From a virus, in the IMG/VR virus record IMGVR_UViG_3300042890_003772, positions 307-64,306 of that record: DNA of 64,000 nt; one strand, written 5' to 3'. The notes under the pieces are model-generated. The model saw nothing but the letters and a program-made list of their open reading frames with translations. It was not told the DNA's origin and made no database searches. Shown in pieces: positions 3,267-42,200 of the stretch. The position numbers were made by a program, and so were the translations under genes. The first letter of the stretch is position 1, and each line of letters opens with the position of its first letter.

Positions 3267-4025
3267 TTATTCCATACTAGCTGCGTTAATAAAATACAAA
3301 TGGGATGAAATATATTTTTCATCCCATACCGAATAAATTTCACTTAGCTTATCAGCAAGCTCTTTAAGTACTACATGGGTATGATGAAAGTTAACTGTTG
3401 CTATTCGATTATTTGCAAACGCGGTACCTATATGGCTTACTACATCATTATCGCGAATTGAAAAATGATTAATCCATGGTAGCTGTATCATAACATTAGA
3501 TGGTAATGTTTGATCTATATTCAATGTATCATCCAACATCTCATTATTAACAACGAGCTGCACATTGTATTGCTGGTTACCAGTAAAGGTAACAGATAAT
3601 TTATCACTATCTGCTAGTTTCCATATAAGCGTAATATTACCATCAATAGATGCCATTAACGGTATTGAAAATAACGAGTATGTTTGTACAAAAGTATATG
3701 CATCATCAATAACTGTAGGTGCAAGCTTATTAGCTAATCTACTATCTGTTTCTTCTATCCAAGTAATTAATTCAGACACAATGTTAGTAGCCATAACATT
3801 AAATTGAGCTTTTACACGGTAAGGTGTATCACAATGTGTACATGTAATTACCTTATTAGCCTCTAATAGACCAGCTAATACATCAATGGGTGTCTGTTCA
3901 AAGCGTTCGTATTCAGCAAGTACGCAATCACCACCTTTAGATTGTATCTGGTTACCTGTACCACATTTAGGGCAGTGCAGCGTTGTAGTATCAAACATAC
4001 CCATATCAAAATGTCTCCAATTCAT
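3267..4025 (-). CDS. Zinc-ribbon protein (CPKCG...CTHCD)
   Basis: 252 aa with two CxxC pairs near the N-terminus. Translationally coupled to the downstream nucleotidyltransferase gene. Confidence 0.5.
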   Translation of the reverse strand: MNWRHFDMGMFDTTTLHCPKCGTGNQIQSKGGDCVLAEYERFEQTPIDVLAGLLEANKVITCTHCDTPYRVKAQFNVMATNIVSELITWIEETDSRLANKLAPTVIDDAYTFVQTYSLFSIPLMASIDGNITLIWKLADSDKLSVTFTGNQQYNVQLVVNNEMLDDTLNIDQTLPSNVMIQLPWINHFSIRDNDVVSHIGTAFANNRIATVNFHHTHVVLKELADKLSEIYSVWDEKYISSHLYFINAASME

Positions 4026-4957
4026 TACAATGTCTTTTTTACAATATCAAGATGTATGGTCTCAATAACCGTATTCCAAAATTCACGATCTACGTCTTGC
4101 GGTAGTGTAGATTCATCTGATAACGCTAATGTTTCTTTAGTGATTCGTTCAATTTCTGGTTCGACCTCCGTCAAAAAATCTAGCTCACCAGCTTTAACCT
4201 TTATCAGAAAATCTGTTTCATCTAGTGGATATTCAAAGTAACCTTTAGTAAAGATGTCTCGAGCTTGATACCCGGCACGTAAGCAGTGCGACACAGCTTT
4301 CCAATCAACTCCAAGATTTTCTTTTGCTAATTTAGAACGCTCTCCATAATTTGCATAAATTTTTTCAAGCGTATCTAGCATATACTTAATTTTTAGATTG
4401 TCTTGAAACTTGCTACCAGCAAATTCATAGTATCTGTTACCTTTGTAGTCGATCCACTTTCCAAAGTCATTTATTGGAAAGTACATATCTTCAACAACTA
4501 AGTTAGCGTCGTGGTTTTTAAGGTAGTCAATGAGTTTTTCTAACTCACCAACCCGTGAGCCTTTAATGCCATATTTAGCTGCTTGTTTACGTACGTATCC
4601 AATATATGACTTCATTGATTTTGTATAAAATCGATGGCGATTACTCACAAGAAAATCCCAGATATCACTGGTGACAATACGTTTATCTACACCACCATGC
4701 AACATATCAAGTGCAACCGTTTCACCTTTACACGCAAGATCAATAAAGTAACTTAATGAGTAAAATGTACGATCAATATCATCTTTAGTATTTTTACCAG
4801 AATGATTGCTGGTGCTCTTGTCGACGTGATAGCTTGCTTTACCTAATAAAATTTCACTAGCGGTAGGTAAAACTATACCTTTATAATCCTTATCGGAGTT
4901 AGGTGTGTCTAAATCGTACAAGTGACTACCGAACAATGTTTCAACTATAATATTCAT
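4025..4957 (-). CDS. Predicted nucleotidyltransferase (pol-beta superfamily)
   Basis: The N-terminus FGSHLYDLDTPNSDKDYKGIV fits the G[GS]-x9-SDxD minimal nucleotidyltransferase motif, as in the PF10127-type family. Confidence 0.5.
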   Translation of the reverse strand: MNIIVETLFGSHLYDLDTPNSDKDYKGIVLPTASEILLGKASYHVDKSTSNHSGKNTKDDIDRTFYSLSYFIDLACKGETVALDMLHGGVDKRIVTSDIWDFLVSNRHRFYTKSMKSYIGYVRKQAAKYGIKGSRVGELEKLIDYLKNHDANLVVEDMYFPINDFGKWIDYKGNRYYEFAGSKFQDNLKIKYMLDTLEKIYANYGERSKLAKENLGVDWKAVSHCLRAGYQARDIFTKGYFEYPLDETDFLIKVKAGELDFLTEVEPEIERITKETLALSDESTLPQDVDREFWNTVIETIHLDIVKKTL

Positions 4958-5166
4958 TTACTGTTCCTAAAGATTTCATCAAACTTAAAGTCTAACGCTT
5001 GTTGCATACGAGCAGTACTTTTAGATGGGGTGTCACGTGCAACGCTTTCTGCGTGACACATACTGCGATCGGACATAATTTGTTTAAGTTCTAGTTCTGA
5101 TATCATAGCAGATCTACTAATTTTACTATTTAAGTTTTGGTCGTTAACTACCATAGTATTCACCAT
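4954..5166 (-). CDS. Hypothetical protein
   Basis: 70-aa ORF inside an overlapping minus-strand operon. Confidence 0.4.
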   Translation of the reverse strand: MVNTMVVNDQNLNSKISRSAMISELELKQIMSDRSMCHAESVARDTPSKSTARMQQALDFKFDEIFRNSK

Positions 5167-5391
5167 TTAAAAAATAACGTTTGCATAACGTAAGAACATT
5201 TTATTTACATCTTCACGAAACTTACGAGTAATTGCAGCATTTTTGTTTATTTGTAACTGTGTAGCAAATATACCGCATTGATCGCACTCACTAAAATACG
5301 ACGGTAGCTCTTTAACTACACCTCTATGTTCAAAAATCTCTAGATCTTCAAACGATACCGCGGTATCATCTCCGCATATACTACAAAGCAT
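5167..5391 (-). CDS. Small C4 zinc-ribbon protein
   Basis: MLCSICGDD...CDQCG. Confidence 0.45.
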   Translation of the reverse strand: MLCSICGDDTAVSFEDLEIFEHRGVVKELPSYFSECDQCGIFATQLQINKNAAITRKFREDVNKMFLRYANVIF

Positions 5392-5448
5392 TCTAAACCT
5401 CTTTATAATTGATTTAAAATACTATTGTAGTATATTTTAACATAAAAA

Positions 5449-6570
5449 TCAAATGGTATCTGCACTAAATTCAATATTTAGTACGTACTTTTTAAAGTAA
5501 TCAATATAGTTAACTTCTTTATGCCTAAATGCAGCAATCATTAAATGAAACAATGGATTATCTTTATGCTTTAAGCAAAAATCTTTAACTTCTAATCCAC
5601 CATCAATTACTACTGTAGCATCAACTGCAAGTGTAAGATCTCGTAATAAGTTAACCGCGCGGGTTTCAATAGCTTCTACTTTATTAAACAGTTCTGTATC
5701 ACCAATGCTGACACAATAAGCTTTAAAATCGTCTACTTTTTCATCTGCAACCATTTCCGCGATATTACGTTCAGTTGTAAATGTGCAGTTATGATGTAGT
5801 AAGTCGTACCAAGCACATTTCCATTTATATCGCTCACCTGCACTTGTTTCAAAAACATAGCCTTCAAAATTTTCAGCTGAGGCTAGCACATCTTTTAATT
5901 TTCCTAACCAATTTACATCATTAGTATCAACTGAAAATCTATCTACTAGGTTGATAGTACGAAATAATTTATTACATAGCTCAAGAAGCTCACTATAAGT
6001 CCAATACCTACCAGTAATATTCTCACGTACAGCTAATAATGTTAGCTTTACTTCATCGTATTTTAATACAATACGATTACTAGGTGCGGTATATTCAAAA
6101 ATTGGAGTAGCTTTAATTTCTTGAGTTAATAGATACTCACTTAATCGATATTCAGGAGACTCATCATTAAATATAGCGTTTACGTTCTGACTAATTTCAT
6201 TATCAAAACTCTTTTTAGTTTTAAAAACAATCTTATCATTAATGCGTACAGGTGAAATCATTGACCCATCACGCTTATCATAAGTTGATTGAATATCATT
6301 CCAGTCAATAACTTCTTCTTTTGTTTCAGGACGCTCGTTTACATTAAAGAATTTATGAAATGTTCTCGATGCAACATTACCTTCTGCGTCAAATGTGATA
6401 CCTCTACATTCACGAGCCCACTCTGCGTCTTCACCAGCAAATGTATCTCGATCTTGAAACATATAGCTAATTACTGTACAACCATTTTCATGTCTAACTA
6501 CGTTAATTTCAGACTTATCGCTGATATGTGGTAGTAAGTCGTTGATATTATTAATAATTGGAAAAGTCAT
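5449..6570 (-). CDS. rnlA: RNA ligase 1 (T4 gp63 / Rnl1 family)
   Basis: ECRGITFDAEGNV...HKFFNVNERP...DGSMISP...KIVFKTKKS is collinear with the T4 Rnl1 motifs ECRGIMFE...EKFFNLNENP...DGSLVST...EILFKSKGS. Confidence 0.8.
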   Translation of the reverse strand: MTFPIINNINDLLPHISDKSEINVVRHENGCTVISYMFQDRDTFAGEDAEWARECRGITFDAEGNVASRTFHKFFNVNERPETKEEVIDWNDIQSTYDKRDGSMISPVRINDKIVFKTKKSFDNEISQNVNAIFNDESPEYRLSEYLLTQEIKATPIFEYTAPSNRIVLKYDEVKLTLLAVRENITGRYWTYSELLELCNKLFRTINLVDRFSVDTNDVNWLGKLKDVLASAENFEGYVFETSAGERYKWKCAWYDLLHHNCTFTTERNIAEMVADEKVDDFKAYCVSIGDTELFNKVEAIETRAVNLLRDLTLAVDATVVIDGGLEVKDFCLKHKDNPLFHLMIAAFRHKEVNYIDYFKKYVLNIEFSADTI

Positions 6571-6609
6571 TTATGCACCTTTTGATTTAATTGATTGCTT
6601 TAAAATAAT

Positions 6610-6638
6610 ATTATAGTACAATTATAGTGTTAAGTCAA
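6610..6638 (-). promoter_or_regulatory. Consensus sigma70-type early promoter, TTGACT-N17-TATAAT
   Basis: The reverse complement reads ttaacTTGACTtaacactataattgtacTATAATattatttta, which would drive rnlA. Confidence 0.6.
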
Positions 6639-6946
6639 GTTAAATATTGTACTCTGCGATAATTCTTACGAACGTTACCTACCGTGTTCCACATGATAAG
6701 TCTTTTTGTCTCAAATACGACACATTGATGGTATAAATCATCTAAGTTATATTCAATACAGATGCACCCGTCCTCAGTAGTACAGGTACGTGTGATAGAT
6801 GCGTCTGTATACCGATCAAGCCATTGCAGTGCTCTAGCTCTCAGCGATTCATCATATAAATTAGTTAGATTATTAATATCGTCAATGTGTTGTTGCATTT
6901 GTATTCCCTTCAAATAACCTATATTCAATGCGAGATATTCCTTCAT
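6635..6946 (-). CDS. Hypothetical protein
   Basis: 103-aa ORF. Its 5' end overlaps the 3' end of the upstream kinase gene, and the true start may be the internal Met near 6898. Confidence 0.35.
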   Translation of the reverse strand: MKEYLALNIGYLKGIQMQQHIDDINNLTNLYDESLRARALQWLDRYTDASITRTCTTEDGCICIEYNLDDLYHQCVVFETKRLIMWNTVGNVRKNYRRVQYLT

Positions 6947-8003
6947 TATACATAGGTAGTGTAAACGATTTCATCATATGTAAGTATACATCATCACTTA
7001 TAGATTTACCAGCTTGACTTCTAATTTCATTGCGCCGTGCAAGTTCTGACATACCAGTTAAAAATAGTATGCACTCAACTCTATAATGTTTACCAAACTG
7101 ACCAATCCAACGACGTCTTGATTTTTTGCTCAAATTAGTCATATCGACAACTACGTTTGCATTAGTTGATTTAGCGGACTGAACTACTCTAGCAATTTCA
7201 TCATCGATAGCGGTTTTAACTTGCTTATCATTAGCTTGTAAGTGAAACGCTTCATTGTATGTAATGTTCATACGAGCTGCAATAGCTTCAAGCACGTTAT
7301 CTCTGGAGATAACAATTGTATCTGCAGGTAACGTTTCAACGTATGAAGATTTACCGCTACCAGGTAGACCACATAGTATAGTTAATCTATTTTTAGTAAT
7401 ATTAATATCAGGTTTATCAACTAACCGATCAACAATTGTTTTTGTGCGGTTAACTATTAATTCACCTAATTTAGTTCGAGCATCAGCACCTTTTGCAAAT
7501 CTACCGAGTGTGTCGCATCGAGTAATTCGACTAACATACGATAAAAACGTACGTTCACCTTCAAATATATTAAGAGCTTTTTCATCTAGCACAATGTCAT
7601 TATCTTCAATTAATACTAAATCAAATAGTAAACTGTGACCAGCTATAGTACGCAGAGTCATTATTTTATCTTCTGTTGACATATCTGTTCTATTTAATAT
7701 ATCAATCGCTAAAAACATGCTAATCGATTCATGTTGTACAAATCTAGCACGTGTTTTTTCTGGAATCTCGATACGAGCTGATGGTTTGCCGATATCATGT
7801 AGCAATGCAGCCCATTGTACAATATCATCTTCATTATATAATTCAGCTATTTTAGCCACCATAAGTGTATGAGTACTCACACGACCTTCTAGGTGATACG
7901 GGTTTAATGTAGTTGCATTAAAATGGTGATTACTGTTCTCCATATCACTCCACAATTTAGGGAATTCTATTTGCAACCACTCTACTTTTTGATTTGTGTC
8001 CAT
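6882..8003 (-). CDS. Bifunctional HD-domain phosphohydrolase / P-loop polynucleotide 5'-kinase (RNA end-healing enzyme)
   Basis: The N-terminal half has HD motifs (H...LLHDIGK). The C-terminal half has a Walker A motif (GLPGSGKSS) and a kinase-like region. It sits next to rnlA. The ATG at 8003 is preferred over the GTG at 8015. Confidence 0.6.
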   Translation of the reverse strand: MDTNQKVEWLQIEFPKLWSDMENSNHHFNATTLNPYHLEGRVSTHTLMVAKIAELYNEDDIVQWAALLHDIGKPSARIEIPEKTRARFVQHESISMFLAIDILNRTDMSTEDKIMTLRTIAGHSLLFDLVLIEDNDIVLDEKALNIFEGERTFLSYVSRITRCDTLGRFAKGADARTKLGELIVNRTKTIVDRLVDKPDINITKNRLTILCGLPGSGKSSYVETLPADTIVISRDNVLEAIAARMNITYNEAFHLQANDKQVKTAIDDEIARVVQSAKSTNANVVVDMTNLSKKSRRRWIGQFGKHYRVECILFLTGMSELARRNEIRSQAGKSISDDVYLHMMKSFTLPMYNEGISRIEYRLFEGNTNATTH

Positions 8004-8029
8004 AATAATCACCACGATAAAAAAATAAT

Positions 8030-8058: not shown

Positions 8059-8121
8059 GTTATACGTGCATGTTATATGGAATAAATATATAATATACAC
8101 CTTAGATTTATGGAGCTATGT

Positions 8122-8376
8122 ATGCAATACGCTTTTAAGCACACAGTAACTGCTGTAAAATGGAATGGTAATAACTATCAAGCCATTTATGATATGACGG
8201 CTCAATTTAATTTAGAAAACACTCTTATATATGATGGTTCAAAATCATTATATGTAGGTGAAGAAGAGGCTGCGTTAGGTGAATACGTAGTTGTATGGCC
8301 TACTGTACCTGGTACTATTCAATCTGTGCTATACGACGAAGCATCATTTGAACATCAATTTGGAAAACTTCATTAA
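8122..8376 (+). CDS. Hypothetical protein
   Basis: ORF with GGAG 6 nt upstream of ATG 8122. Confidence 0.4.
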   Translation: MQYAFKHTVTAVKWNGNNYQAIYDMTAQFNLENTLIYDGSKSLYVGEEEAALGEYVVVWPTVPGTIQSVLYDEASFEHQFGKLH

Positions 8377-9101
8377 TATTTTCCATACCAATCAACTGGA
8401 GGAGTCTGCCCGCGTATAATATATTTACGTTCTGCAGATTTTAGACTATCAACCTGCTGCAAGCCAATAGGATTACGTATTGGACTAGTAAAGAATTGTA
8501 CTATAGCAGGCATTACAGTCGCCACCTCCTCATCTACACCTAGTATTTGCAACGGATAGTGTGCATTATTAAACACTTTTTGCATCTTTTCAATCGTTCT
8601 AGGTTTTGATTCGTGCGTATCTTTAATATACTCTGGTGGCACAAAGCGTCTACGTGATTCAGCCCGAGTTAATGATCGCTCTAATTCAGATTCTTTATAT
8701 AACATCATTACATCATAACCGTATTGACGTAGTCTACGCATACGCACGATAGTGCTATGAACATTAGATGCGGTAGTGTCAATAATAACTGGTAGCATAC
8801 TGGTTAGGTATAACTCAAGTTGTGATGACATTAACTCTTTAGTTCTATTTTGAATTGATACTGCTCCTGGAGCCTCAACTTCAGCGCTTGTACTAATAGG
8901 TACATCATGCTTCTTGCTCAAGTATTCATAAAATTTATCGTAATCTAATACGCGTGGTTTAATGCTATGTGATACAGTTAGTTCTTGAATAATATCTTTC
9001 ACGATTGTGCTTTTTCCACTAGCAGGAATACCACCTAAGAATAAGCACTTAAAAATACCTTTGTCGTAGATTCCTTCTGATAATATGTCATGCAATTTCA
9101 T
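8373..9101 (-). CDS. P-loop kinase-like protein with an N-terminal CTS-like signature (MKLHDILSEG)
   Basis: Walker A motif GGIPASGKST. Translationally coupled to the upstream ADP-ribosyltransferase gene (ATGA). Confidence 0.5.
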   Translation of the reverse strand: MKLHDILSEGIYDKGIFKCLFLGGIPASGKSTIVKDIIQELTVSHSIKPRVLDYDKFYEYLSKKHDVPISTSAEVEAPGAVSIQNRTKELMSSQLELYLTSMLPVIIDTTASNVHSTIVRMRRLRQYGYDVMMLYKESELERSLTRAESRRRFVPPEYIKDTHESKPRTIEKMQKVFNNAHYPLQILGVDEEVATVMPAIVQFFTSPIRNPIGLQQVDSLKSAERKYIIRGQTPPVDWYGKY

Positions 9102-9691
9102 GAAAGTGCCTCTTCTAAATGATCAAACCATAAGTCCATTGTGACCACGTAACAGTTATTAGCAATCATAACTTCACTACCATCTTCTAATGCTGCGTGG
9201 AGGTTCTTAGATATATATGTTGAAAGATATTGATCTAATTTTTGATAGAATTGTTGATCATATTTTTTTGCTGGATCTGCATCTTTACTAGATTCAAGCT
9301 TTGACACTGTATCGTACAAATCACCTACTTGAGGGCTCCACAAGTACTTTAATGGTCCAATAGGAAACAACACATATGCTTCACCATAAACTTCTGCAAC
9401 TTCCCAATCAGAGGTTGCAAAGATCGCATTACGGAATGGTAACCCAGCATGCTTAGTAAAGTAATCGTTAATATAATTATGAATCGTTATATTAGTATCT
9501 TTAGGACTTCTACTATCTAGTGATGGATGAATAACGGTCATTGGTGGTATATTGCTATCTTGTATTCCTCGAGATAATGGCACCCCAACGTTATTATACT
9601 CCGCAATAATTGGAGCACAATCACGTTTTAATATTGCTACAATTTCATCGATGCTATGATTATCATTATTAAGAATTTCATTTAGTTTCAT
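9098..9691 (-). CDS. ADP-ribosyltransferase, ModA/ModB/Alt-like, paralog 3
   Basis: The R (PLSRG), STS (IFATSDWE) and E (GSEVMIAN) motifs match T4 ModA (PLWRG, VVSASYD, EQEVMIP). N-terminus MKLNEIL. Confidence 0.55.
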   Translation of the reverse strand: MKLNEILNNDNHSIDEIVAILKRDCAPIIAEYNNVGVPLSRGIQDSNIPPMTVIHPSLDSRSPKDTNITIHNYINDYFTKHAGLPFRNAIFATSDWEVAEVYGEAYVLFPIGPLKYLWSPQVGDLYDTVSKLESSKDADPAKKYDQQFYQKLDQYLSTYISKNLHAALEDGSEVMIANNCYVVTMDLWFDHLEEALS

Positions 9692-10326
9692 TTTATTAAC
9701 TCCTGAACTACTTTTCCATAATCATAGATACTAACCATATAGCAATCATTTGCAAACATTATTTCGTGATCACTGGCAGTAGCTGCAAGTAAATCTTTAT
9801 TTGTATAGGTATTAATATATTGATTGAGTTTATCAAGCAGCAGCTTATTGTTGTAGTCACTAGCAGGTAAAGTACTGTCTAAACGATCCTCATCTGGATC
9901 AAACGCTGTACCATCTCCCAAGTTAGCAATTGTAGTGTCAACAACAGCAAACAGATCTTCTATATTAGGGCTCCAGATGAAATTTAATTCACCTACTGGG
10001 AACACTACGCTGACGGAACCATATCCAGCTGCACGTGGTTGATTACCTGTGGCAAATATTCCATTACGTAACGGAAAATGAAATTTTGTTTGAAACTCTT
10101 GATTTAAAAACTTATGTATTAATCTAGGCGTATCTAATGGAGTTCTATCTAATCTAGGTTTAATTAAGTTAATATGACCTGGATAGGCTTTACCGCTATT
10201 ACTACCTCTAAACAAGCAATCACCGTTATTTTGCTTTAGTATTTCAATATACGGTCCGCAATGCTGCTTAATAGTTTCAACAATATGTGATAAATCAGTT
10301 GCATCTATAACTTCATGTAATCTCAC
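9688..10326 (-). CDS. ADP-ribosyltransferase, ModA/ModB/Alt-like, paralog 2
   Basis: CLFRG, IFATGN and DHEIMFAN motifs. Paralogous to its two neighbours. Confidence 0.55.
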   Translation of the reverse strand: MRLHEVIDATDLSHIVETIKQHCGPYIEILKQNNGDCLFRGSNSGKAYPGHINLIKPRLDRTPLDTPRLIHKFLNQEFQTKFHFPLRNGIFATGNQPRAAGYGSVSVVFPVGELNFIWSPNIEDLFAVVDTTIANLGDGTAFDPDEDRLDSTLPASDYNNKLLLDKLNQYINTYTNKDLLAATASDHEIMFANDCYMVSIYDYGKVVQELIK

Positions 10327-10895
10327 GACATCACCGCATCTTTAATCATACCATAATTTTGAATCATAATACACTTATTGTTAAGCATAACTTCATGACC
10401 TGTTTGTATAGCTTTATCCAATTCATTATTTTGATACGCATCAGCTATGCTAGCAACAGCATTTATTAATGATTGTTTAGAGCTTTCAAGTGTCTCAAAG
10501 TCAAAGGTTTTATCCAATTGAACATATAAATCACTAATTTGTTTGCTCCAAATATAGTGCAATTCGCCAATTGGAAACACCGCATAAACCGGTCCGTAAT
10601 ACCGTGCATCATCATAACTGCTAGATGCAAAAACGCCATTGCGATATGGAAAACCAAATGCACGCTTGAACGATTGATTTAGTGCATCGTGTAGCACTCG
10701 AGGGGTATCAACCGGAACTCTATTTAAGTTAGGTTCTATTACATTAAAACCTTCAACGTTGGTAAATCTACTACCTTTATATCCACGAAATAATGGAGCA
10801 CCGTCAGTATGCTTTAATACTTCAATATAAGGAGCACATAACTGCTTTAATTTAGCAATATCTACATCTGGAACTGCGATTTCGTATAATTTCAT
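10323..10895 (-). CDS. ADP-ribosyltransferase, ModA/ModB/Alt-like, paralog 1
   Basis: PLFRG, VFASSSYD and GHEVMLNN motifs. N-terminus MKLYEI. Confidence 0.55.
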   Translation of the reverse strand: MKLYEIAVPDVDIAKLKQLCAPYIEVLKHTDGAPLFRGYKGSRFTNVEGFNVIEPNLNRVPVDTPRVLHDALNQSFKRAFGFPYRNGVFASSSYDDARYYGPVYAVFPIGELHYIWSKQISDLYVQLDKTFDFETLESSKQSLINAVASIADAYQNNELDKAIQTGHEVMLNNKCIMIQNYGMIKDAVMS

Positions 10896-10922: not shown

Positions 10923-10930
10923 TATTTATG
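10923..10930 (-). promoter_or_regulatory. Late-promoter-like box CATAAATA (minus strand)
   Basis: Lies 26 nt upstream of the paralog 1 ATG at 10895. Confidence 0.4.
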
Positions 10931-11513
10931 CACTGAATTCTAAATTAAAGTCCATATTTTTAGTAACATTTAATTCAATGTACATTAACATCATTGCAAC
11001 ATTTAACGTGTTAGTATTTGGTATTTTAGTTGACTTAATTTTTAATAATTGAACGCGTGGATCATACGCAATAATTGTTTTAAGTTCATCTTCAACCTGA
11101 ATCACTACTTCATCATCTAACGGCTCAAACAATAATTCAGGAATAATGGATCCAAACCCAGGCATCATTACTCGACTACCTTTTATTGTATTAATATGAT
11201 TTAGTATATTTCGTTCAACTAGACTAACATCAGTAAGGGTAAATGTATTATTACCGGGATTTTCAATATTATAATTTGCTGATATAGGTGATGTTAGTCC
11301 TTGCGTATTAGTAGCTGGAAACACACCTTTTTTAATTGTACCTGAATTAAAATCGATAGTAGAAAAACCTCTATATAGTGTACCGTTATAATTAAGGTTA
11401 TTAGTACCATTCAATATACTAGTTGATTTGGTATTAGTACCTTTTACTGTTGGTGTCGCTATAAGCGATGAAAGATCGATACCCAGTGTGTTAACTGTTT
11501 GCCGTTGTGCCAT
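10926..11513 (-). CDS. gp25: Baseplate wedge protein, gp25/GPW family
   Basis: IKGSRVMMPGFGSIIPELLFEPLDDEV...YDPRV matches the T4 gp25 motif KGSRPFDPEFGCDLSDQLFE...YEPRI. Confidence 0.7.
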   Translation of the reverse strand: MAQRQTVNTLGIDLSSLIATPTVKGTNTKSTSILNGTNNLNYNGTLYRGFSTIDFNSGTIKKGVFPATNTQGLTSPISANYNIENPGNNTFTLTDVSLVERNILNHINTIKGSRVMMPGFGSIIPELLFEPLDDEVVIQVEDELKTIIAYDPRVQLLKIKSTKIPNTNTLNVAMMLMYIELNVTKNMDFNLEFSA

Positions 11514-14500
11514 TACCTACTCCAATACTTATTTCTAGTTTTATGAGTCCGTCCAATTTCAGCCTCATTATTTGTATATTTCTGAGTCATGTCGGTATTA
11601 GATTTATTATCTGACCTAATCCATGGTTCGTGTTTTGGTATTCTCAATGGATATGCGGCTATTAATGCAGCTGATGATGATGCAGCTCTAGGTCCATTCA
11701 TTTTTGTTAATATCGCTGCCCTATCTTGATCAGGTATTTTATCTAACAAGCTCATCATTGTTTCGTTTGGCATACTCATTAAGAAGTTATTAAGCTCCTC
11801 ATCTGGGATACGTGCAAGATCAGCTCCCAATAATTCAGGTGACATATTTGAGAATACATCAATTAAATCAGCAAGTGGTGCACGATTAATTAAATCAGTA
11901 AAATCATTAATTGGTATATCTTTCAACATACTACCAACATCATCTGGCTCCATACCATTTAGTAGTGATGTTACGTCTTTATCATTAAAGTCGGATAATA
12001 CTCCAGTTGCATCAGGACCACTTAACGTTGGAAGCACCGCACTCATTTGCGTAACTTCATCATTTGTCATACTATTTAGCGCTTCAGTTGCATCCATACT
12101 TGCAGCAGATGTAAATACTGCAACTTTATCCTTGTCACTTAAACTTGTTAAAAATTTAGATACTTGTGGTAGTACAACACCGGTATCTGGCACCATGGTT
12201 AGCAGTTGACCGCGTTGATCTGGTGACATTTGCTCCATAAGATTATTGACATCTTCAGGTGGTAAATCAGCAATTTTTGCGCCAATATCTGCACCAGTCA
12301 TGCTATTTGAAAAGGTGCTTTGAAAATTCCCGGGAATAATTTTTGATGTATCAAATCGTTGAACATCGGTACTATCTACGGTTAATTTGTCGGTCGGTAT
12401 ATACGACATTGCTTCACCTAATGCGGATGGCTCCATATTAGCCAGTACACTATTAATCTCGTCTGGTGATCTAGTTGCTAAAATTCTACCAAAATTAGGA
12501 TACTTAAGCGCGTTATCAGGAGTAACAGTGTTTTGATCTACTGCAACCCCGTTTGCATCTACAGTAGATTTTTCTGTATTTGCACGTGCAATTAACTCGC
12601 CTGCGAGCGCAGGATGTAAATTACATACCGTATTAGGATCTATTTTTTCTAATAATGCTGCTAATTTATCTGACTGCATATTTGATAACATGTCACCTAA
12701 TTTAGCACTTTGCATATCGTTTAATATGTTAGTATCTGGTATATTATCTACCACATCGTTAATTTGATCCGATGGAATTTTTGATAATATATTACCTAAT
12801 TGAGGTGACGGTAATTGAGATAAAATACCATCTAAGTCTTCTGGTGGTAATGATTGCATTATACCGCCAGCTGCAGCTCCACTAATCTTATCTAGAATAC
12901 CAGGTAGCATATCAGCTGGTATATTTGATGATACTTGCCCAAACATATCTGCACCAACACTACTAAGCAGATTACTAACAACCTCATCTGACATTTCTGA
13001 TAACGCACGACCAAGATCTTCACTAGGCATATTTGCCATAGTGTCGCTAATACTATCACTTGAAATAGATCCCAATACCTGAGCTAGTTGTGCAGATGTT
13101 AGGTTAGAAGCAGCACTATCACCTGACGTATCACTTGAAACTGGTGTTACAGTTGGATCAACTAAAACTCCATCGACTAATACCGGTGTAACGTCTGCAC
13201 CAGTTGAACCAACTGAGCCTGCAACACCTAGAGCTGCTTTAGTCTTACTTGCTACAGCTTGTGGTGCTACTATACCACTGGTTGCACTAATAGCGGCACT
13301 ACCTAGTATTATTGAACCACTTCTAATAGTTAGTGATGATTTATTAGTAATGTTAAATTTAGTTGTAACCGCATCAAGTGTATTGCCACTTAATACTAGA
13401 TTATTTGTACCGGTAACTGTTGTGCGTTTACCTTCAGCTTTTAACGCTGTAGTACCTTTAAGGTTAAGCACCTTACCTTGAATGTAGCAGTTTGATTTTG
13501 CAATAGTAGTTATCTTATCGCTAGTAGTGTTAATTTCTTTAGTGCTACGTAAGTTAGTTTTTTGTGAACGTACATAATAATTTGTTTTTGCAGTAGAGGT
13601 TATAACGTCGCTACTGTTACTGATGACATGATTAGATGATAGTACGATATCATGATTAGCATTCATGTGTATATCTTCTGCGTGCATTCTAATAGACTGC
13701 TTTGCATTTAAATTAATATCTGCATCAGAATTAATAGATATTGATTGGCTAGCGTAGATATCAATAGATCCATCTTGATCAAGTTCAATCCAGTTATTAC
13801 CTTCAGCTGTGTTAATGTATATTCTTTCATTAGTATCATCAATTATAATATTATGTCCACAAGAAGATCTAATACGTATTCTACAATTATCAGCACTATC
13901 ATCCATTGACCATGAATGAAAGCCTGGTGTAGTCATTGAATATATCTGACTATCGTAGTTGTCACCATTGGCGGTAAATTTACGATCTGGATTAATTCTA
14001 GATCGTTTATATCCAGACGTGGTATCAGCAACTTGTGATTCTGTATACTTGTTTTTTATATATTGATCACTTAATCCAGTTACCCCTGGATCTGTAACAC
14101 GTGATACGTATTCAGGACGATTAGTATCTGTGCCAAACGCTTTTGTTATGTTAGTTGATAATGGTTGAATAGGTTTTTCGGTAGATGATAGTGGGCCAGA
14201 ATATTTACCATCTTTATCTTTAATATGTCTACCATGAGGCATAGTATGTTCCATGAATCTTGGAGGCATACATCCAAAGAAGACTCTGCTAGTTGGATCA
14301 CCATTTAAGCACATAATAACAGCTTCAGAACCGACTTTTGGTAGTGCCCACATGCCATACGATGTAGATCCTTCCGTTACAGAATCATCTGGACCTCTAT
14401 TAATATTTGTAGATATCATTCCACCAAATGGAGTAATATAGTTGCACCACGGTAAGTTTTCGTATGGCGTACCTGGTAAGTCTCCGTATGCCTGACAATA

Positions 14501-14599
14501 TACTTTTATTCTACCTCGACCTTGCGGGTCGTTAGTATCTACTATTAACCCAGTAGATACCACTGTATATGGATTTACGTTTTGATTTGGACCGTACAT
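11513..14599 (-). CDS. gp5: Baseplate central spike, gp5-like (OB fold plus beta-helix) with a C-terminal helical-repeat extension
   Basis: The N-terminus DTNDPQGRGRIKVY...LPWC is a gp5/VgrG-type OB fold. It is followed by a beta-helix rich in Ser, Thr and Asn. The C-terminal third is about 25 degenerate LxxMxPxDL repeats. Confidence 0.6.
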   Translation of the reverse strand: MYGPNQNVNPYTVVSTGLIVDTNDPQGRGRIKVYCQAYGDLPGTPYENLPWCNYITPFGGMISTNINRGPDDSVTEGSTSYGMWALPKVGSEAVIMCLNGDPTSRVFFGCMPPRFMEHTMPHGRHIKDKDGKYSGPLSSTEKPIQPLSTNITKAFGTDTNRPEYVSRVTDPGVTGLSDQYIKNKYTESQVADTTSGYKRSRINPDRKFTANGDNYDSQIYSMTTPGFHSWSMDDSADNCRIRIRSSCGHNIIIDDTNERIYINTAEGNNWIELDQDGSIDIYASQSISINSDADINLNAKQSIRMHAEDIHMNANHDIVLSSNHVISNSSDVITSTAKTNYYVRSQKTNLRSTKEINTTSDKITTIAKSNCYIQGKVLNLKGTTALKAEGKRTTVTGTNNLVLSGNTLDAVTTKFNITNKSSLTIRSGSIILGSAAISATSGIVAPQAVASKTKAALGVAGSVGSTGADVTPVLVDGVLVDPTVTPVSSDTSGDSAASNLTSAQLAQVLGSISSDSISDTMANMPSEDLGRALSEMSDEVVSNLLSSVGADMFGQVSSNIPADMLPGILDKISGAAAGGIMQSLPPEDLDGILSQLPSPQLGNILSKIPSDQINDVVDNIPDTNILNDMQSAKLGDMLSNMQSDKLAALLEKIDPNTVCNLHPALAGELIARANTEKSTVDANGVAVDQNTVTPDNALKYPNFGRILATRSPDEINSVLANMEPSALGEAMSYIPTDKLTVDSTDVQRFDTSKIIPGNFQSTFSNSMTGADIGAKIADLPPEDVNNLMEQMSPDQRGQLLTMVPDTGVVLPQVSKFLTSLSDKDKVAVFTSAASMDATEALNSMTNDEVTQMSAVLPTLSGPDATGVLSDFNDKDVTSLLNGMEPDDVGSMLKDIPINDFTDLINRAPLADLIDVFSNMSPELLGADLARIPDEELNNFLMSMPNETMMSLLDKIPDQDRAAILTKMNGPRAASSSAALIAAYPLRIPKHEPWIRSDNKSNTDMTQKYTNNEAEIGRTHKTRNKYWSR

Positions 14600-21148: not shown

Positions 21149-21784
21149 TTAACCAAGTTTATATTCTTGTCTTAACCATTTTTTAACTTCAGCAACTAAG
21201 TATTTTTGTGCTGATTGATCTTCGCGAACTGATTCTGCTAATGACATAACAATGCGACCAGTTTTACTTGATTCTAATGACTCATATATTGAGGATGGGT
21301 ATGCACTTGAGCAACTTGGTGTCGATACGATATCAATAGTAATTAAGTTAAATCCACTAACGATACCACTTTCGTTAACATCACCAGCACCACGGCTACT
21401 AACACCCATTTTAACGCCACTTTCAGTGATCAACACTTTAGCAATTTGACCCATTGGAGTACCTAAGATTTTTGCTTTACCAAAAACCTGATTACCTTCA
21501 AGTCTAAGATCAGTAATTACGTGACTGATACGATCACTAGAAACAACTAATGAATTTGGGTGATCTAATTCACCAAAAATACCACCATCGTTTTTAATTG
21601 ATTCGTTTAATTTATGTACGGCTGCTTGCATTTCTGCAATTGGATATATACGACCGTTTCTATTACGGACTTCTGACTCCATAAAGCAACCACTCAAGAA
21701 TAAGTTCTTACCATCGGTAGAAGCTTCTTGAATTAGGTTGCCTTGCTCGTAAGATAAGGTTTCTACTAATAGTTCTGTTTTCAT
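21149..21784 (-). CDS. gp21: Prohead core protease, T4 gp21 family
   Basis: GELDHPNS, GKAKILGTPMGQI and GVSSRGAGDV match T4 gp21 GEFNHPDS, GKAKLTDNPMGNI and GVSSRALGSL. Confidence 0.8.
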   Translation of the reverse strand: MKTELLVETLSYEQGNLIQEASTDGKNLFLSGCFMESEVRNRNGRIYPIAEMQAAVHKLNESIKNDGGIFGELDHPNSLVVSSDRISHVITDLRLEGNQVFGKAKILGTPMGQIAKVLITESGVKMGVSSRGAGDVNESGIVSGFNLITIDIVSTPSCSSAYPSSIYESLESSKTGRIVMSLAESVREDQSAQKYLVAEVKKWLRQEYKLG

Positions 21785-21896
21785 TGCTTGATTACACCTA
21801 AATATTAAATTATTATAATATTTATAGCTAATAGTTCTGTTTTCATTGCTTGATTACACCTAAATATTAAATTATTATAATATTTATAGCTAATAG
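21767..21896 (-). repeat. Tandem 62-bp duplication carrying a late promoter box and the first codons of gp21
   Basis: ctaatagttctgttttcattgcttgattacacctaaatattaaattattataatatttatag occurs twice in a row. The minus strand reads TATAAATA at 21819-21826 and at 21881-21888. Confidence 0.85.
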
Positions 21897-34036: not shown

Positions 34037-34702
34037 TTGAAAATCGTAGTTTTAACCGGCGCAGGGATTAGCGCAGAATCAGGCATTAGCACATTCCGTG
34101 ATACCGAAGGATTGTGGGAGAGCAATAATATTGAAGAAGTCGCCTCACCTAATGGCTGGGCAGAAAATCCCGATTTAGTAAATAATTTTTATAATCAACG
34201 TAGAGCGCAGCTACAAACAGTTGAGCCAAATGCTGCACATATAGCATTAGTAGAGCTTGCAAAAAAACATGATGTGCATATTATTACTCAAAATGTTGAC
34301 GATCTACATGAACGAGCTGGATCTCAAAACATCCTGCATTTACATGGTGAGTTATTAAAAGTGCGTGATGAGGTTACAGGTGAAGTGTATTATCATCCTG
34401 GAGACTTAGATTATACAGAATTAAGTCCAAATGGAAACACATTACGTCCGCATATTGTTTGGTTTTATGAGATGGTACCATTAATTACTGATGCTCAACA
34501 ACTGGTAGCGCAAGCAGAACATTTAATTATCATAGGTACTAGTTTGCAGATATATCCAGCGGCAGGATTGATTGATTATGCACCAACTGGTTGCCCGGTT
34601 ACGGTAATTGATACAATTGACCCAGCAGCACAATATGAGTATACATTTATCAATGGTCCAGCTTCATCAAGAGTTCCAGCGTTTGTACAAACATTAATCT
34701 AA
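34037..34702 (+). CDS. cobB-like: Sir2-family NAD-dependent deacylase, CobB-like, lacking the zinc-binding cysteines
   Basis: VVLTGAGISAESGISTFRDTEGLWE, NVDDLHERAG, HLHGELLKVR and IGTSLQIYPAAG are near-collinear with E. coli CobB. CobB CxxC...CxxC positions are replaced by DE..G and NGN. TTG start with GGTGA upstream. Confidence 0.75.
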   Translation: MKIVVLTGAGISAESGISTFRDTEGLWESNNIEEVASPNGWAENPDLVNNFYNQRRAQLQTVEPNAAHIALVELAKKHDVHIITQNVDDLHERAGSQNILHLHGELLKVRDEVTGEVYYHPGDLDYTELSPNGNTLRPHIVWFYEMVPLITDAQQLVAQAEHLIIIGTSLQIYPAAGLIDYAPTGCPVTVIDTIDPAAQYEYTFINGPASSRVPAFVQTLI

Positions 34703-39288: not shown

Positions 39289-42200
39289 ATGTTAGCAGAT
39301 GGTTTACAGTTCCTAGAAGGGTCGGTCAATACTAATCTTGTTTTGCCCGCCTTGTCAGAAAGCGGTAGAAATGCATTAGTTAATGTTAATGTTGGTGAAG
39401 TAGTATTTCAGACGACCGGTCAAAAAGGTATTTACGTCTATAATGGTACTAGCTGGCAATATGGGCTATCTATCGCATTAGATAGCACAAATCCAACTAC
39501 ATTATTTGGATATGGAATTACAGATGCAGTTCGTGCAAATGCCGCCATTACCGCAGGTACTGGAACTAAAATCACATATGATAATAAGGGGCTTGTAACA
39601 GGGTCTACTACATTAGACATTAGTGATATTCCAAACCTACCAACCTCTAAATTAACTGGACAAATAACTATAGGTCAATTACCTGACCTAGGATCAACTG
39701 CAAGCACATATGTAAAAGTATATGTTGATGCAACAGGTCGTGTAGTTGGTGGTGAAACTACTGCCACATTAGCTACATTAGGTATTACTGATGCAATTCA
39801 AGCTAATACCGCAATTACAGCCGGTACCGGCACAAAAATAACTTACGATTCAAAAGGTTTAGTAATATCATCTGATGTATTAACCGCGTTAGATATACCA
39901 GATATAGAGACCAGTAAATTACTAGGTAGAATTACACCGGAACAATTACCATTGCTCGGTGATTCTGTTGCTGGGTACAGCAGTGTATCGATAGATGCAA
40001 CTGGTCGTGTGGTTGGAGGTAGTAATCCAACTACATTAGGTGGCTATGGTATTATCGATGCTGTGTTAGCTAATTCACAGATTGTAGGTAGCACAGGCAC
40101 TAAAATTACCTATGATTACAAAGGGTTAGTTACATCATCAACGCAGTTAATTGCGAGTGATATTCCATCGTTAGATGCAAGTAAAATTACCACGGGTAGA
40201 TTTTCAGCTAATTTCTTACCATTTATTGAGACATTAACACCTGGTACGTATACTAAAGTAACTGTTGATAGTACTGGTCGAGTAATTGCATGTGAAACAC
40301 CTACTACTATAGATGAGTATGGTATTACTGATGCAATGCGAGCTAATCCCGCAATTACACCAGGTACTGGTACAAAAATTACATATGATGCGCAAGGGTT
40401 AATCACAGATGCTGCAGTCTTAGCACCAACCGATATTCCAAGCTTACCAGCATCAAAAATTGTATCAGGGGTATTAAGTTCAAGTTTATTGCCAAACTCA
40501 GGTGTAACAGCTGGTGATTACTACAAAGTAACTGCAGATATACATGGTCGTATCACGGCAGGTGCTAGTACATTAGATATATCTGATATTACCGACTTAT
40601 CTACGGTATTAGCAAGTAAAGCTACTCCTGCAAACATCACTGACGCTATTGATGCAGTGTATGGTGGTGTAGGTGTACCTGGAAACACACTTAAAAAGAT
40701 TTACGATATTGCAGTTGCTAGCAACCACGAGATAACAGTCGCTGATACAAATGCAAGAATTGGAACATACGTTTCATCATTACCTACCAACATCTTTGTT
40801 GTTAACGATGGTGACGGTGAATGGGCGTTATATAAAGCGTTAGCAACCGGCCTAGCCACTAACAATAACGTTATAAAATTATCAGATCCTAGTATATTAA
40901 ACACCGCGAATGGTTATATACCTGAAGATCGTACAAATAAAGATACTGATCCAACATTAGCAGCTAATAGTGATATTAAATATCCATCACAAAAAGCAAT
41001 AAAAGCGTATGCCGATACAAAGGTACCTAAAAATGCGTTAATTACAGCTGGTACAGGAGCAAAGCTTACCTACAATCAATTTGGTTTGGTAACCGGAACT
41101 GGTACATTACTAGCTAGTGATATTCCAAACCTGGATGCAAGTAAAATTACATCCGGTATCTTACCAACATCAGTATTACCCACCTCAGGTGCTAACCCAT
41201 CACTATCATACGTAAAAGTAAACGTTGATACATATGGCCGGGTAATATCTGGATCAACAGAGTTAGCAGCAGGTAATATACCGTCATTAGATGCAAGTAA
41301 AATTACATCTGGTAAATTACTAGTTAGTGTAATGCCAAACTTAGGTACACCTGTATCAACGTACACCAAGGTACGTATTGATAGTACTGGTCGTGTGGTA
41401 TCTGGCTCAAATCCAACAGCACTCGCTGATTACGGAATAACAGACGCTGTTACAGCTAACCCAACCATTGCAGCTGGCGCTGGGATTAAGATAAGTTATG
41501 ATAGTAAAGGGTTAGTTACAGGCTCAACATCATTAGTAGCCAACGATATTCCAAACATATCCGCTGCAAAAATTACCTCAGGTGTTTTAAATAGCTCCGT
41601 ATTACCTACATCAGGTATTGCTGAAGGTAATTATAAATCAGTTACCGTAGATTCACATGGTCGAGTAATATCTGGTACAAACACATTAACATTTGATGAT
41701 GTATCTGGATTAACATCTGCGATTACAAACGCAGCATCTAATGCAAGTGTATCAACAGCAATTAATACAGCAATTTCTAACTTACGAGCTGATGTACCTT
41801 CTCAAGGAAGTACATTAAAAGGCTTGTACGACATGGTGCTGGCGAGCAACCATGAGCTTAACGCTGCAACAGTTGTAGCTAGAGATGCATTAGAAATTGT
41901 ATCGTTACCAACTAACGTATTTGTATTAGACGATGGTGACGGGCAATGGGCGTTATATAAAGCATTATATTCAGACTCACAGTTTAACGATTACCTCATT
42001 ACGCATCCAACAGCTGTTGCTAGCGATAGATATGTAAAGGTATCTGATCAAACATCATTGAACGCATCACTGGGTACATCTACTGAGGTTAAAACTAATA
42101 AATCAACAAATATTGAGCTACTTGATGGATTGTCAGCAAGTAACGTTAAATATCCAACACAGCTTGCAGTAAAAACATACGTTGATAACCAAATACAAAC

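Follow-up and report, generated by a model that had tools for sequence, protein, structure and literature searches.

This locus raises the question of what three small tandem proteins are and what they do when they are encoded beside the baseplate genes of a phage and carry motifs reminiscent of ADP-ribosyltransferases (ARTs). Alt, ModA and ModB of bacteriophage T4 are the textbook example of host takeover by ADP-ribosylation, and a preliminary description of the locus had assigned the three proteins to this T4 family. We have analyzed the locus within the whole stretch of viral DNA available, 64,000 nucleotides long and called the window below. The features on which the argument rests are the following.

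8373-9101, minus strand: P-loop kinase of the Zeta_toxin/AAA_33 type, coupled to paralog 3 (Pfam Zeta_toxin 5.7e-9, AAA_33 2.7e-7)
9098-9691, minus strand: paralog 3, 197 aa, ATG start, same family, strand-1 motif PLSRG
9688-10326, minus strand: paralog 2, 212 aa, GTG start, same family (phrog_11975, 2.7e-32)
10323-10895, minus strand: paralog 1, 190 aa, ATG start, predicted ART fold with the putative triad R37/S91/E168
10926-11513, minus strand: gp25-like baseplate wedge protein (PF04965 1.6e-8; phrog_261/43; synteny conserved)
11513-14599, minus strand: gp5-like baseplate hub/cell-puncturing protein, 1028 aa (phrog_13211 'baseplate hub subunit and tail lysozyme' 3.4e-9)
21149-21784, minus strand: T4 gp21-type prohead protease (Peptidase_S77 7.8e-23)

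Organization of the three-gene locus

The three reading frames follow one another on the minus strand, as had been described, and consecutive genes share 4-bp stop/start overlaps (GTGA between paralogs 1 and 2, ATGA between paralogs 2 and 3, and ATGA between paralog 3 and the kinase), which fits the translational coupling proposed earlier. The GTG start of paralog 2 yields the family N-terminus MRLHE. The gp25-like gene lies directly upstream of paralog 1, with a gap of 30 nt, and the gp5-like gene forms the head of this tightly packed gene string; these two genes and the kinase are the neighbors that had been reported. Downstream of the paralogs are encoded the Zeta/PNK-like kinase, a Pnkp-type HD-kinase, an RNA ligase 1 and an RlaP nucleotidyltransferase.

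The gene string had also been called a late operon. The term is tentative. The string is tightly packed, and a perfect T4-type late promoter (TATAAATA) was not found before it on its own strand. The nearest sequence on that strand was CATAAATA, located 28 nt upstream of paralog 1. The sequence TATAAATA occurs at 21819-21826 and at 21881-21888, on the strand of the gp21-type protease gene. No terminator-like site was found on the string's own strand, and a scan for sigma-70 promoters and terminators gave matches below shuffled expectation.

The paralogs belong to a large phage family without functional annotation

All three paralogs match the same PHROGs with E-values of 1e-16 to 1e-32, and the family profile matches 5,680 representative clusters (E≤1e-3). 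From these two results, the paralogy is far beyond chance. The pairwise identities of the three proteins are 40%, 37% and 35%, close to the 30-40% divergence given at first. The function of the family PHROGs 11975 and 15932 is unannotated, and the family is without functional annotation in the libraries searched (PHROGs, Pfam and UniProt). Scans of the three paralogs against Pfam, NCBIfam and PADLOC returned nothing relevant; these negatives have no weight because the control proteins, T4 ModA and ModB, were also unmatched in the same copies. The Pfam copy that was scanned does not contain PF26816, so that its negative result says nothing on that family. When 122 members of the family were compared with Pfam (E≤1), none of the 25 families listed was an ART family. 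The PDB, searched by sequence and by profile, gave noise only (a designed chlorophyll protein and apolipoprotein A-I), and megablast against a phage collection produced no match.

Large and jumbo phages related to T4 are the typical carriers of the family, and tandem arrays of up to 8-11 copies are its usual arrangement. In 32 IMG/VR loci, gathered with a 13-sequence alignment, two copies or more were present in 24 cases, with a maximum of 8. Close relatives carry four copies in the same slot, and phage Atu_ph07 carries 11. The Atu_ph07 array adjoins primase/helicase genes and the SCTP-2 array adjoins head genes. A homologue of the kinase is present within 11 of the 32 viral loci. Moreover, gp53 of Atu_ph07 is a family domain fused to the homologous kinase, and phrog_12810 spans both the family domain and the kinase. 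Another member (P0129) is fused to NUDIX, which hints at a link to NAD. The locus kinase, for which no close solved relative was found, also matches a PHROG annotated 'polynucleotide kinase' (5e-6) and, weakly, the tRNA kinase PSTK.

The paralogs are predicted to adopt an ART fold with a putative R-[ST]-E triad

A split β-sheet ART fold is predicted for the paralogs with good confidence (AF2 model with pLDDT of 83.2 and pTM of 0.79; four of the five models at 81.5 or above), in support of the fold that had been proposed. According to the model, the chain starts with a short, disordered and conserved N-terminus (M-[KR]-L-x-E) followed by two helices and by the ART core. All the motifs quoted for the paralogs in the preliminary description were found (PLFRG, CLFRG and PLSRG; FASSSY, FATGN and FATSDW; GHEVMLNN, DHEIMFAN and GSEVMIAN), and the Arg, Ser/Thr and Glu picked from them are strongly conserved and belong to strands 1, 2 and 5 of the model. 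R37, in the motif L-[YF]-R-G, is placed within strand 1 (residues 35-38). S/T91, in the motif F-x-[TS]-[GS]-[DNS], is within strand 2 (residues 88-91), which is followed by a helix. E168, in the motif E-[IV]-M, directly precedes the strand 169-171 and occupies the front edge of strand 5. This placement agrees with the R-[ST]-E clade as defined in the literature, in which the Arg is on strand 1 (R/H-G-x) and the Ser/Thr on strand 2 (S-x-S type) (PMC7955679). R37, S/T91 and E168 would form a triad of the R-[ST]-E type.

The conservation of these residues was evaluated on 122 diverse members, which are about 25-40% identical. E168 is present in all 122 sequences, G38 in 121, R37 in 120 and T/S91 in 102, the last position (84%) being more weakly conserved than the Arg and the Glu. 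R59, R85 and D122 are invariant; they lie outside the classical ART signature and are specific to the family. R37, G38, R59, R85, P108, D122 and E168 are all nearly or fully invariant. The copies of the window, of L004 and of Atu_ph07 all retain R37, G38, R59, R85 and G101; position 91 is Ser or Thr except in gp57 of Atu_ph07 (Ile), and Y, F or H is found at position 100. The motif E-[IV]-M is kept in every one of these copies whose C-terminal half aligns, while the C-terminal half of one Atu_ph07 subgroup no longer aligns to the family profile. A conserved Glu or Gln two residues before E168 (ExE/QxE), which is typical of classical toxins and of Alt, ModA and ModB, is lacking, position 166 being G, N, K, E, H or D with no preference.

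The divergence between the paralogs is concentrated in the segment that precedes the Glu strand. The length of this insert varies between 32 and 85 residues in the family. The insert is helical and about 20 aa longer in paralog 2, and it is only 21-38% identical between the paralogs, versus 40-48% for the core. Such a distribution fits the earlier suggestion that each paralog has a different host target.

Foldseek against the PDB gave a best E-value of 0.22 with a TM-score of about 0.15, which is meaningless. The bacterial protein BC2332 (PDB 2aua), which we take to be a DUF2441 member, shares 10% identity with the family, and a sequence-profile match between them was not found; the match to it favors the assigned fold but is silent on function. 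BC2332-like proteins constitute SCOP d.166.1.6 of the ADP-ribosylation superfamily (PMC3000352), and DUF2441 belongs to the Pfam ART clan (PMC7955679). Also near are injected bacterial ART-fold effectors of non-canonical chemistry (the arginine ADP-riboxanases OspC3/CopC, and SopF) and DarT/Arr.

The family is probably separate from T4 ModA/ModB and from Alt

The family resembles ModA and ModB at several levels. Like the members of the family, these T4 proteins are about 200 aa long, are encoded by tandem genes with 4-bp overlaps, and show L-[WY]-R-G in the first strand and E-[VW]-M at the fifth. The ModA model (pLDDT of 90) shows an order of secondary structures collinear with that of the paralog model, and the triad residues appear in the same order along the two chains. 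The ModA strings PLWRG, VVSASYD and EQEVMIP had been quoted correctly. Furthermore, the best local hhalign matches are precisely the stretches with the Arg motif (L-[YFW]-R-G) and the Glu motif (E-[VI]-M), which are collinear under permissive settings. All these points favor common membership. However, the hhalign probability between the profile of the 122 family sequences and ModA/ModB was only 10.7% over 24 columns, with the L-[YFW]-R-G stretch alone aligned, and it fell to 2.5% and 1.1% with a shallow family profile. The middle motif failed to align. Comparison with Alt gave an hhalign probability of 0.19% and an hmmsearch score of -1.2 bits. Global hhalign against ModA/ModB was also tried and rejected, the resulting alignment being nonsense.

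Several structural differences separate the family from ModA. The spacing between the Arg and the Ser is 54 residues in the family versus 24 in ModA, strands 1 and 2 are connected differently, and the C-terminus consists of a long hairpin in ModA versus a short strand and a helix in the family. The catalytic Glu closes the motif E-Q-E in ModA/ModB and E-M-E in Alt, whereas the family has no such E/Q at the first position. The precomputed Pfam field is empty ('-') for the family members P0001-P0013 and reads PF26816 for every ModA/ModB homologue. Foldseek against BFVD, the check on predicted viral structures, returned 26 matches with E-values up to 0.001. With a single exception, these were proteins of the same jumbo phages or of uncultured phages that lacked a name or any characterization. 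The matches were members of the family itself; ModA, ModB and Alt were not among them, in a library whose coverage of ModA/ModB is uncertain. The mode of delivery differs as well: ModA and ModB are early, non-packaged enzymes, whereas the family adjoins baseplate genes and is associated with the virion in Atu_ph07. These data suggest that the family is separate from T4 ModA/ModB (PF26816) and from Alt, with no detectable relationship, and the membership that had been claimed could not be sustained.

Alt, an enzyme of the R-S-E clade, is nevertheless comparable in other respects. It combines an Arg, a Ser/Thr and a Glu in a similar arrangement, and both Alt and the Atu_ph07 homologues are phage proteins of ART type or ART fold found in the virion; the T4 record locates Alt in the capsid, from which it enters with the DNA. 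Alt differs by its size of 682 aa and its single copy, versus about 190-260 aa and arrays of 3-11 for the family, by its ExE, and by the lack of counterparts to the invariant R59, R85 and D122.

Homologues were detected in phage particles and carry a conserved N-terminal [LI]-x-E

All 11 family members of Atu_ph07 (gp53-gp63) were detected in phage particles by published ESI-MS/MS, with 3-31 unique peptides and a coverage of 12-47%. These proteins correspond to AUZ94865-AUZ94875, as matched by molecular weight within 0.01 kDa. The particles were PEG-purified only, and the list also holds RecA-like, SSB and RNR proteins (1-3 peptides), so that some cytoplasmic carry-over is possible. Virion presence holds for the Atu_ph07 homologues, and by analogy the proteins of the window phage may be packaged too.

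The T4 protease gp21 cleaves after L/I-X-E, and Alt sheds in this way an N-propeptide of about seven residues that ends with I-T-E (PMC9026906). Among the 122 family members, 108 have a matching motif, [LI]-x-E, in their first 10 residues, versus 8% of internal stretches of sequence, and residues 1-8 are disordered in the AF2 model. As judged from sequence, the conserved N-terminal motif matches the cleavage motif of the T4 prohead protease; the gp21-type protease encoded in the window would cut it if the paralogs are packaged in the head. An N-terminal [LI]-x-E is also found in 11 of 40 other ORFs of the window, and in the paralogs it could instead belong to a helix needed for folding.

Discussion

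We favor, with fair confidence, the explanation that the paralogs are members of an ART-fold family and act as packaged and injected NAD-dependent effectors, with an Alt-like delivery. The paralogs would be produced together with the baseplate proteins, taken into the virion and delivered to the host at infection. Entry into the head might involve the N-terminal peptide containing [LI]-x-E, which would then be removed by the gp21-type protease. Once inside the cell, they would consume NAD+ in the ADP-ribosylation of host targets. The helical insert ahead of the Glu strand, which is variable, would determine the choice of the target, so that each paralog would act on a different one. The Zeta-like kinase co-transcribed with them, which some phages carry as a fusion with the family domain, would take part in the same pathway. 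We infer in this way NAD use, transferase activity, N-terminal processing and the host targets of the paralogs.

It is unlikely, though worth weighing, that the paralogs are instead nucleic-acid ARTs, performing DarT-like ADP-ribosylation of DNA or RNA or Tpt1-like RNA-phosphate chemistry together with the kinase and the RNA-repair cassette. The repair genes downstream of the paralogs and the polynucleotide kinase and PSTK matches of the locus kinase point in this direction, and phosphate binding could be a role of the invariant R59 and R85. However, the RNA-repair setting is not general, as seen from the genes that flank the Atu_ph07 and SCTP-2 arrays, and the invariant Glu speaks against chemistry of the Tpt1 type (H-H-h) (PMC7955679). 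Packaging in the virion is also more readily understood for an effector that is injected than for an enzyme of RNA repair.

We regard it as quite improbable that the proteins are non-catalytic virion components with an ART-derived fold, comparable to the internal proteins of T4 or the inner-body proteins of phiKZ. The multiple copies, the high peptide coverage in Atu_ph07 particles, the adjacent baseplate genes, the missing ExE and the C-terminal half that has drifted off the family profile in one Atu_ph07 subgroup are all consistent with such a role. The fusions to NUDIX and to the kinase suggest enzymology, however, and the seven near-invariant residues, which are maintained at an overall identity of about 25-40% and also across paralogs within single genomes, correspond to the pattern of an active site and not of a scaffold.

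Equally improbable in our view is the processing of NAD+ without a macromolecular target, by an NADase or by an enzyme that makes a small molecule from ADP-ribose, which with the kinase would alter the NAD pool or signals early in infection. In classical R-S-E toxins, the transfer to the acceptor is aided by an E/Q located two positions ahead of the catalytic Glu, and the absence of this E/Q from the family is consistent with such an activity. So is the NUDIX fusion. The window had been described as rich in NAD-consuming enzymes, of which the SIR2 protein is clear (34037-34702, 3.5e-39) but the PRTase signal is weak (7.8e-5 and 9e-5). Phosphorylation of NAD by Zeta-family kinases is documented (AvrRxo1; PMC5491322, PMC5087710). 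Nothing specific links the locus kinase to AvrRxo1, however, and, as this kinase has no close solved relative, the analogy is purely speculative. The diversification of multiple paralogs with a hypervariable insert is more easily explained by many macromolecular targets than by a single reaction on a small molecule. Finally, it is very improbable that the proteins are true members of the ModA/ModB/Alt families, as diverged orthologues or paralogs that would modify RNA polymerase and translation factors, in view of the profile, motif and structural comparisons described above.

Returning to the injected effectors that we favor, a bolder form of the proposal is doubtful at present. Virion-delivered ART and Zeta-like kinase pairs, separate or fused and amplified to as many as 11 paralogs in jumbo phages related to T4, might carry out a two-step NAD-dependent modification new to phages, each paralog being directed at a different host factor or defense system. 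Such a modification would be, for example, the phosphorylated ADP-ribosylation of host targets, or the formation of a phosphorylated product from NAD or ADP-ribose.

If the assignment is true, phages possess, apart from Alt, ModA and ModB, a distinct ART-fold family of far greater size, which counts thousands of metagenomic clusters, is carried in virions and is arrayed in large T4-related phages. 'Hypothetical virion proteins' of jumbo phages, such as gp53-63 of Atu_ph07, would become candidate injected enzymes, and the arrays would offer natural specificity variants for the discovery of host targets. It would also raise the question of why an ART domain has been repeatedly coupled to a Zeta-type kinase.

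Gene organization of the paralogs

The three paralogous genes and the kinase gene that follows them are arranged in tandem on the minus strand:

10323-10895, minus: paralog 1, 190 aa
9688-10326, minus: paralog 2, 212 aa, GTG start
9098-9691, minus: paralog 3, 197 aa
8373-9101, minus: P-loop kinase (Zeta_toxin/AAA_33), next gene after paralog 3

The preliminary description had placed the three ORFs exactly at these positions; all motif strings quoted for them were found in the sequences, and the T4 ModA strings were correct when checked against the T4 gene. The observation of three paralogous ORFs with these motifs and neighbors is confirmed. The proteins share 35-40% identity. Consecutive paralog genes overlap by 4 bp (GTGA, ATGA), and paralog 3 overlaps the kinase gene likewise. 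Upstream are genes for a gp25-type baseplate wedge protein (PF04965, 1.6e-8) and a 1028-aa gp5-like hub (phrog_13211, 3.4e-9). From 15785 to 8373 the gene string has no terminator-like site on its own strand, and its gaps range only from -25 to +30 nt. On the opposite strand, an 88-aa ORF (8110-8376, plus) lies between the kinase and HD-kinase genes; it had no match in family searches including PHROGs and Pfam, and relatives carry an 85-aa opposite-strand gene at the matching place.

The string had also been described as late. The motif TATAAATA occurs just upstream of several other ORFs of the window, the prohead protease among them. Eight of its 11 perfect copies precede the start of an ORF on the same strand by no more than about 100 nt (2212, 15802, 21819, 21881, 28229, 29377, 35107, 49767), suggesting that the ORF-proximal copies are T4-type late promoters; their total count in the window is not above chance. 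No perfect TATAAATA was found ahead of the paralog string, the nearest sequence being CATAAATA, 28 nt before paralog 1, and the label 'late' is unproven for this string.

Predicted fold and conserved residues

In the AlphaFold2 model of paralog 1, computed from a 13-sequence alignment (pLDDT 83.2, pTM 0.79), R37-G38 belong to strand 1 and S/T91 to strand 2, after which comes a helix; strand 5 has E168 at its front edge. The published definition of the R-[ST]-E clade has Arg, Ser/Thr and Glu in the same places (PMC7955679). Because the triad residues proposed from the sequence fall in this model where the clade definition puts them, we accept for the paralogs a predicted ADP-ribosyltransferase (ART) fold with a putative triad of the R-[ST]-E type.

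None of the paralogs matched a Pfam, NCBIfam or PADLOC family or a PDB sequence; the Pfam and NCBIfam blanks are uninformative on likeness to ModA, because T4 ModA and ModB also match nothing in the same copies. All three matched PHROGs 11975 and 15932, both of unknown function. An exhaustive profile search recovered 5,680 representative clusters at E≤1e-3 (3,878 at E≤1e-10), and the predicted ART-fold family of the paralogs (hereafter the family) is therefore very large. Cultured phages in which it was found are the jumbo phages Atu_ph07, SCTP-2 and RsoM2USA.

Table. Invariant and nearly invariant positions in an alignment of 122 diverse family members (paralog 1 numbering).
R37: 120/122
G38: 121/122
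R59: 122/122
R85: 122/122
F89: 119/122
T/S91: 102/122
Y100: 116/122
G101: 121/122
P108: 122/122
W116: 117/122
S117: 116/122
D122: 122/122
E168: 122/122

R37, G38, R59, R85 and G101 are kept in all copies of the window, of a relative's locus (L004) and of Atu_ph07. Among the same copies, position 91 is Ser or Thr except in gp57 (Ile), position 100 is Tyr, Phe or His, and E-[IV]-M is retained wherever the C-terminal half can be aligned.

A subgroup in Atu_ph07 (gp53, gp55, gp56, gp58 and gp59; L002 8970-12125; L007) keeps the N-terminal half (R37, R59, R85, T91, G101), and its C-terminal half has no alignment to the family profile. A 2645-aa metagenomic protein (P0014) contains five family-domain stretches, along with further repeated modules and a weak GNAT signal; possible explanations are a polyprotein, a series of fused genes, and read-through in a phage that has reassigned a stop codon.

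The kinase and other neighbors

Association with a kinase recurs in the family: phrog_12810 spans a family-like N-terminal part and a kinase, Atu_ph07 gp53 (778 aa) is a family domain fused with a kinase, and 11 of 32 viral loci include a kinase homologue. Other genes of note in the window are:

4025-4957, minus: RlaP nucleotidyltransferase (phrog_388, 4e-88)
5449-6570, minus: RNA ligase 1 (PF09511, 9e-27)
6882-8015, minus: HD-phosphohydrolase + AAA_33 kinase, Pnkp-like
34037-34702, plus: SIR2-family protein (PF02146, 3.5e-39; phrog_2162 'Sir2 NAD-dependent deacetylase', 1.1e-44)

The first three form an RNA-repair cassette (4025-8015, minus) directly downstream of the kinase, in an order kept in relatives. 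That HD-kinase, RNA ligase 1 and RlaP adjoin the kinase would suit ARTs directed at nucleic acids and tied to this cassette; the neighborhood is, however, not conserved in Atu_ph07 or SCTP-2, and we consider this reading unlikely.

Of the NAD-consuming enzymes in which the window had been called rich, the SIR2-family protein is well supported, and the PRTase, in another ORF, gave weak matches only (UPRTase 7.8e-5, PRTase-CE 9e-5). In a 463-aa family member (P0129) the family domain (residues 250-430) is fused behind an N-terminal NUDIX domain (5.9e-10). ADP-ribose or NAD derivatives are common substrates of NUDIX enzymes. AvrRxo1 is a documented Zeta-family kinase that phosphorylates NAD (PMC5491322, PMC5087710). 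No close solved relative of the window kinase was found. It is improbable, in our estimate, that the paralogs are NAD-processing enzymes with a small-molecule product.

Association with the virion

In the published study of Atu_ph07, phage particles were analyzed by ESI-MS/MS. We mapped AUZ94865-AUZ94875 to gp53-gp63 using gp70 (primase/helicase) as anchor and computed molecular weights, which agreed within 0.01 kDa. Each of the 11 proteins matches the family profile and was detected in particles (3-31 unique peptides, 12-47% coverage), the stock being PEG-purified only and the protein list including a handful of replication proteins with 1-3 peptides. Non-catalytic virion proteins have little probability as an explanation, the residue retention across aligned copies being an argument that they are active enzymes and not structural proteins in decay.

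In the paralog 1 model the first eight residues are disordered, yet they are conserved in the family. The motif [LI]-x-E lies within the first 10 residues of 108/122 members, against 8% of internal windows of the same proteins, with its Glu at position 5 or 9. The window paralogs begin with MKLYE, MRLHE and MKLNE, and the Atu_ph07 copies with M[RK]W..QL[TN]E, except gp63 (MRLFQLLE) and gp53 (MKWNDLNE). Among the window genes are one for a prohead protease of the gp21 type and one for a Gp23 capsid protein. T4 gp21 cleaves after L/I-X-E, the capsid-targeting sequence of IPIII is its first 10 residues, and the propeptide removed from Alt is about 7 residues long (PMC9026906). Given the conserved motif, these window genes and the T4 precedent, it is a reasonable hypothesis that the paralogs are packaged in the head and then trimmed at the N terminus. 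We put it no more firmly because the motif also lies in the first 10 residues of 11/40 other window ORFs (≥100 aa), well above 8%, and because a tail location is possible given the baseplate neighbors. The products of these 11 ORFs may be additional substrates of the gp21-type protease.

Relation to T4 ModA, ModB and Alt

The T4 genes were fetched and a ModA/ModB profile was built from database homologues. The deep family profile matched it with 10.7% probability over 24 columns, restricted to the L-[YFW]-R-G stretch; shallow profiles gave 1-2.5%, and profile-profile comparison with Alt 0.2%. When the settings were relaxed, the R and E motifs were collinear with those of ModA/ModB, the middle motif being unaligned. 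The Foldseek check suggested earlier, run on viral predicted structures (BFVD), gave 26 matches at E≤0.001, all but one unnamed or uncharacterized and from the same jumbo phages and uncultured phages; ModA, ModB and Alt were absent among them. ModA/ModB homologues carry PF26816, whereas the family carries no Pfam domain, and two residues before the catalytic Glu the family lacks the E/Q seen in ModA/ModB (E-Q-E) and Alt (E-M-E). The ModA model (pLDDT 90) has the element order of paralog 1 (strand with R, strand with S, helix, two strands, helices, strand with E, strand), an agreement to be expected of any pair of ART folds. The description 'ModA/ModB/Alt-like' thus holds for predicted fold and triad positions and is not supported for family membership: the paralogs probably work like an ART, membership in ModA/ModB or Alt was not detected in these comparisons, and true membership is very improbable.

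Copy number, divergence and significance

In close relatives the gp25-kinase slot holds four tandem copies (190, 212, 187 and 199 aa; L004 6237-8600, the contig of sample 3300059473, and L005) against three in the window, and copy number therefore varies. The 187-aa copy is absent from the window, where no remnant was found. At least two same-strand copies occur in 24/32 IMG/VR loci, with eight in some, and Atu_ph07 has 11. In SCTP-2 the array adjoins a giant protein of about 3,450 aa (gene 442; L003 1-4117); an ORF of 3461 aa is present in the window at 39289-49674 (plus).

The window paralogs are 40-48% identical in core residues 34-123 and 21-38% in the helical segment that precedes the Glu strand, a segment which is 32 to 85 residues long across the family and which we take to correspond by position to the target-choice region of classical ARTs. 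This pattern fits the earlier idea that each paralog may have its own target.

On balance we lean towards the paralogs being NAD-dependent ART-fold effectors of a distinct family, which would be delivered by the virion, would each have a different target and would act jointly with the kinase. Both the ART superfamily and phage ARTs that are packaged, such as Alt, are already known, and a jumbo-phage survey mentions 'several ARTs'. No functional annotation of the family was found in PHROGs, Pfam, NCBIfam or the UniProt names of the BFVD matches, one of which bears the unrelated label 'chorismate mutase-like', and no paper describing it was found in the literature searched. The family brings no new principle, and its partnership with the kinase is unexplained; it represents a large and testable group of predicted enzymes that, in Atu_ph07, are borne by the virion.
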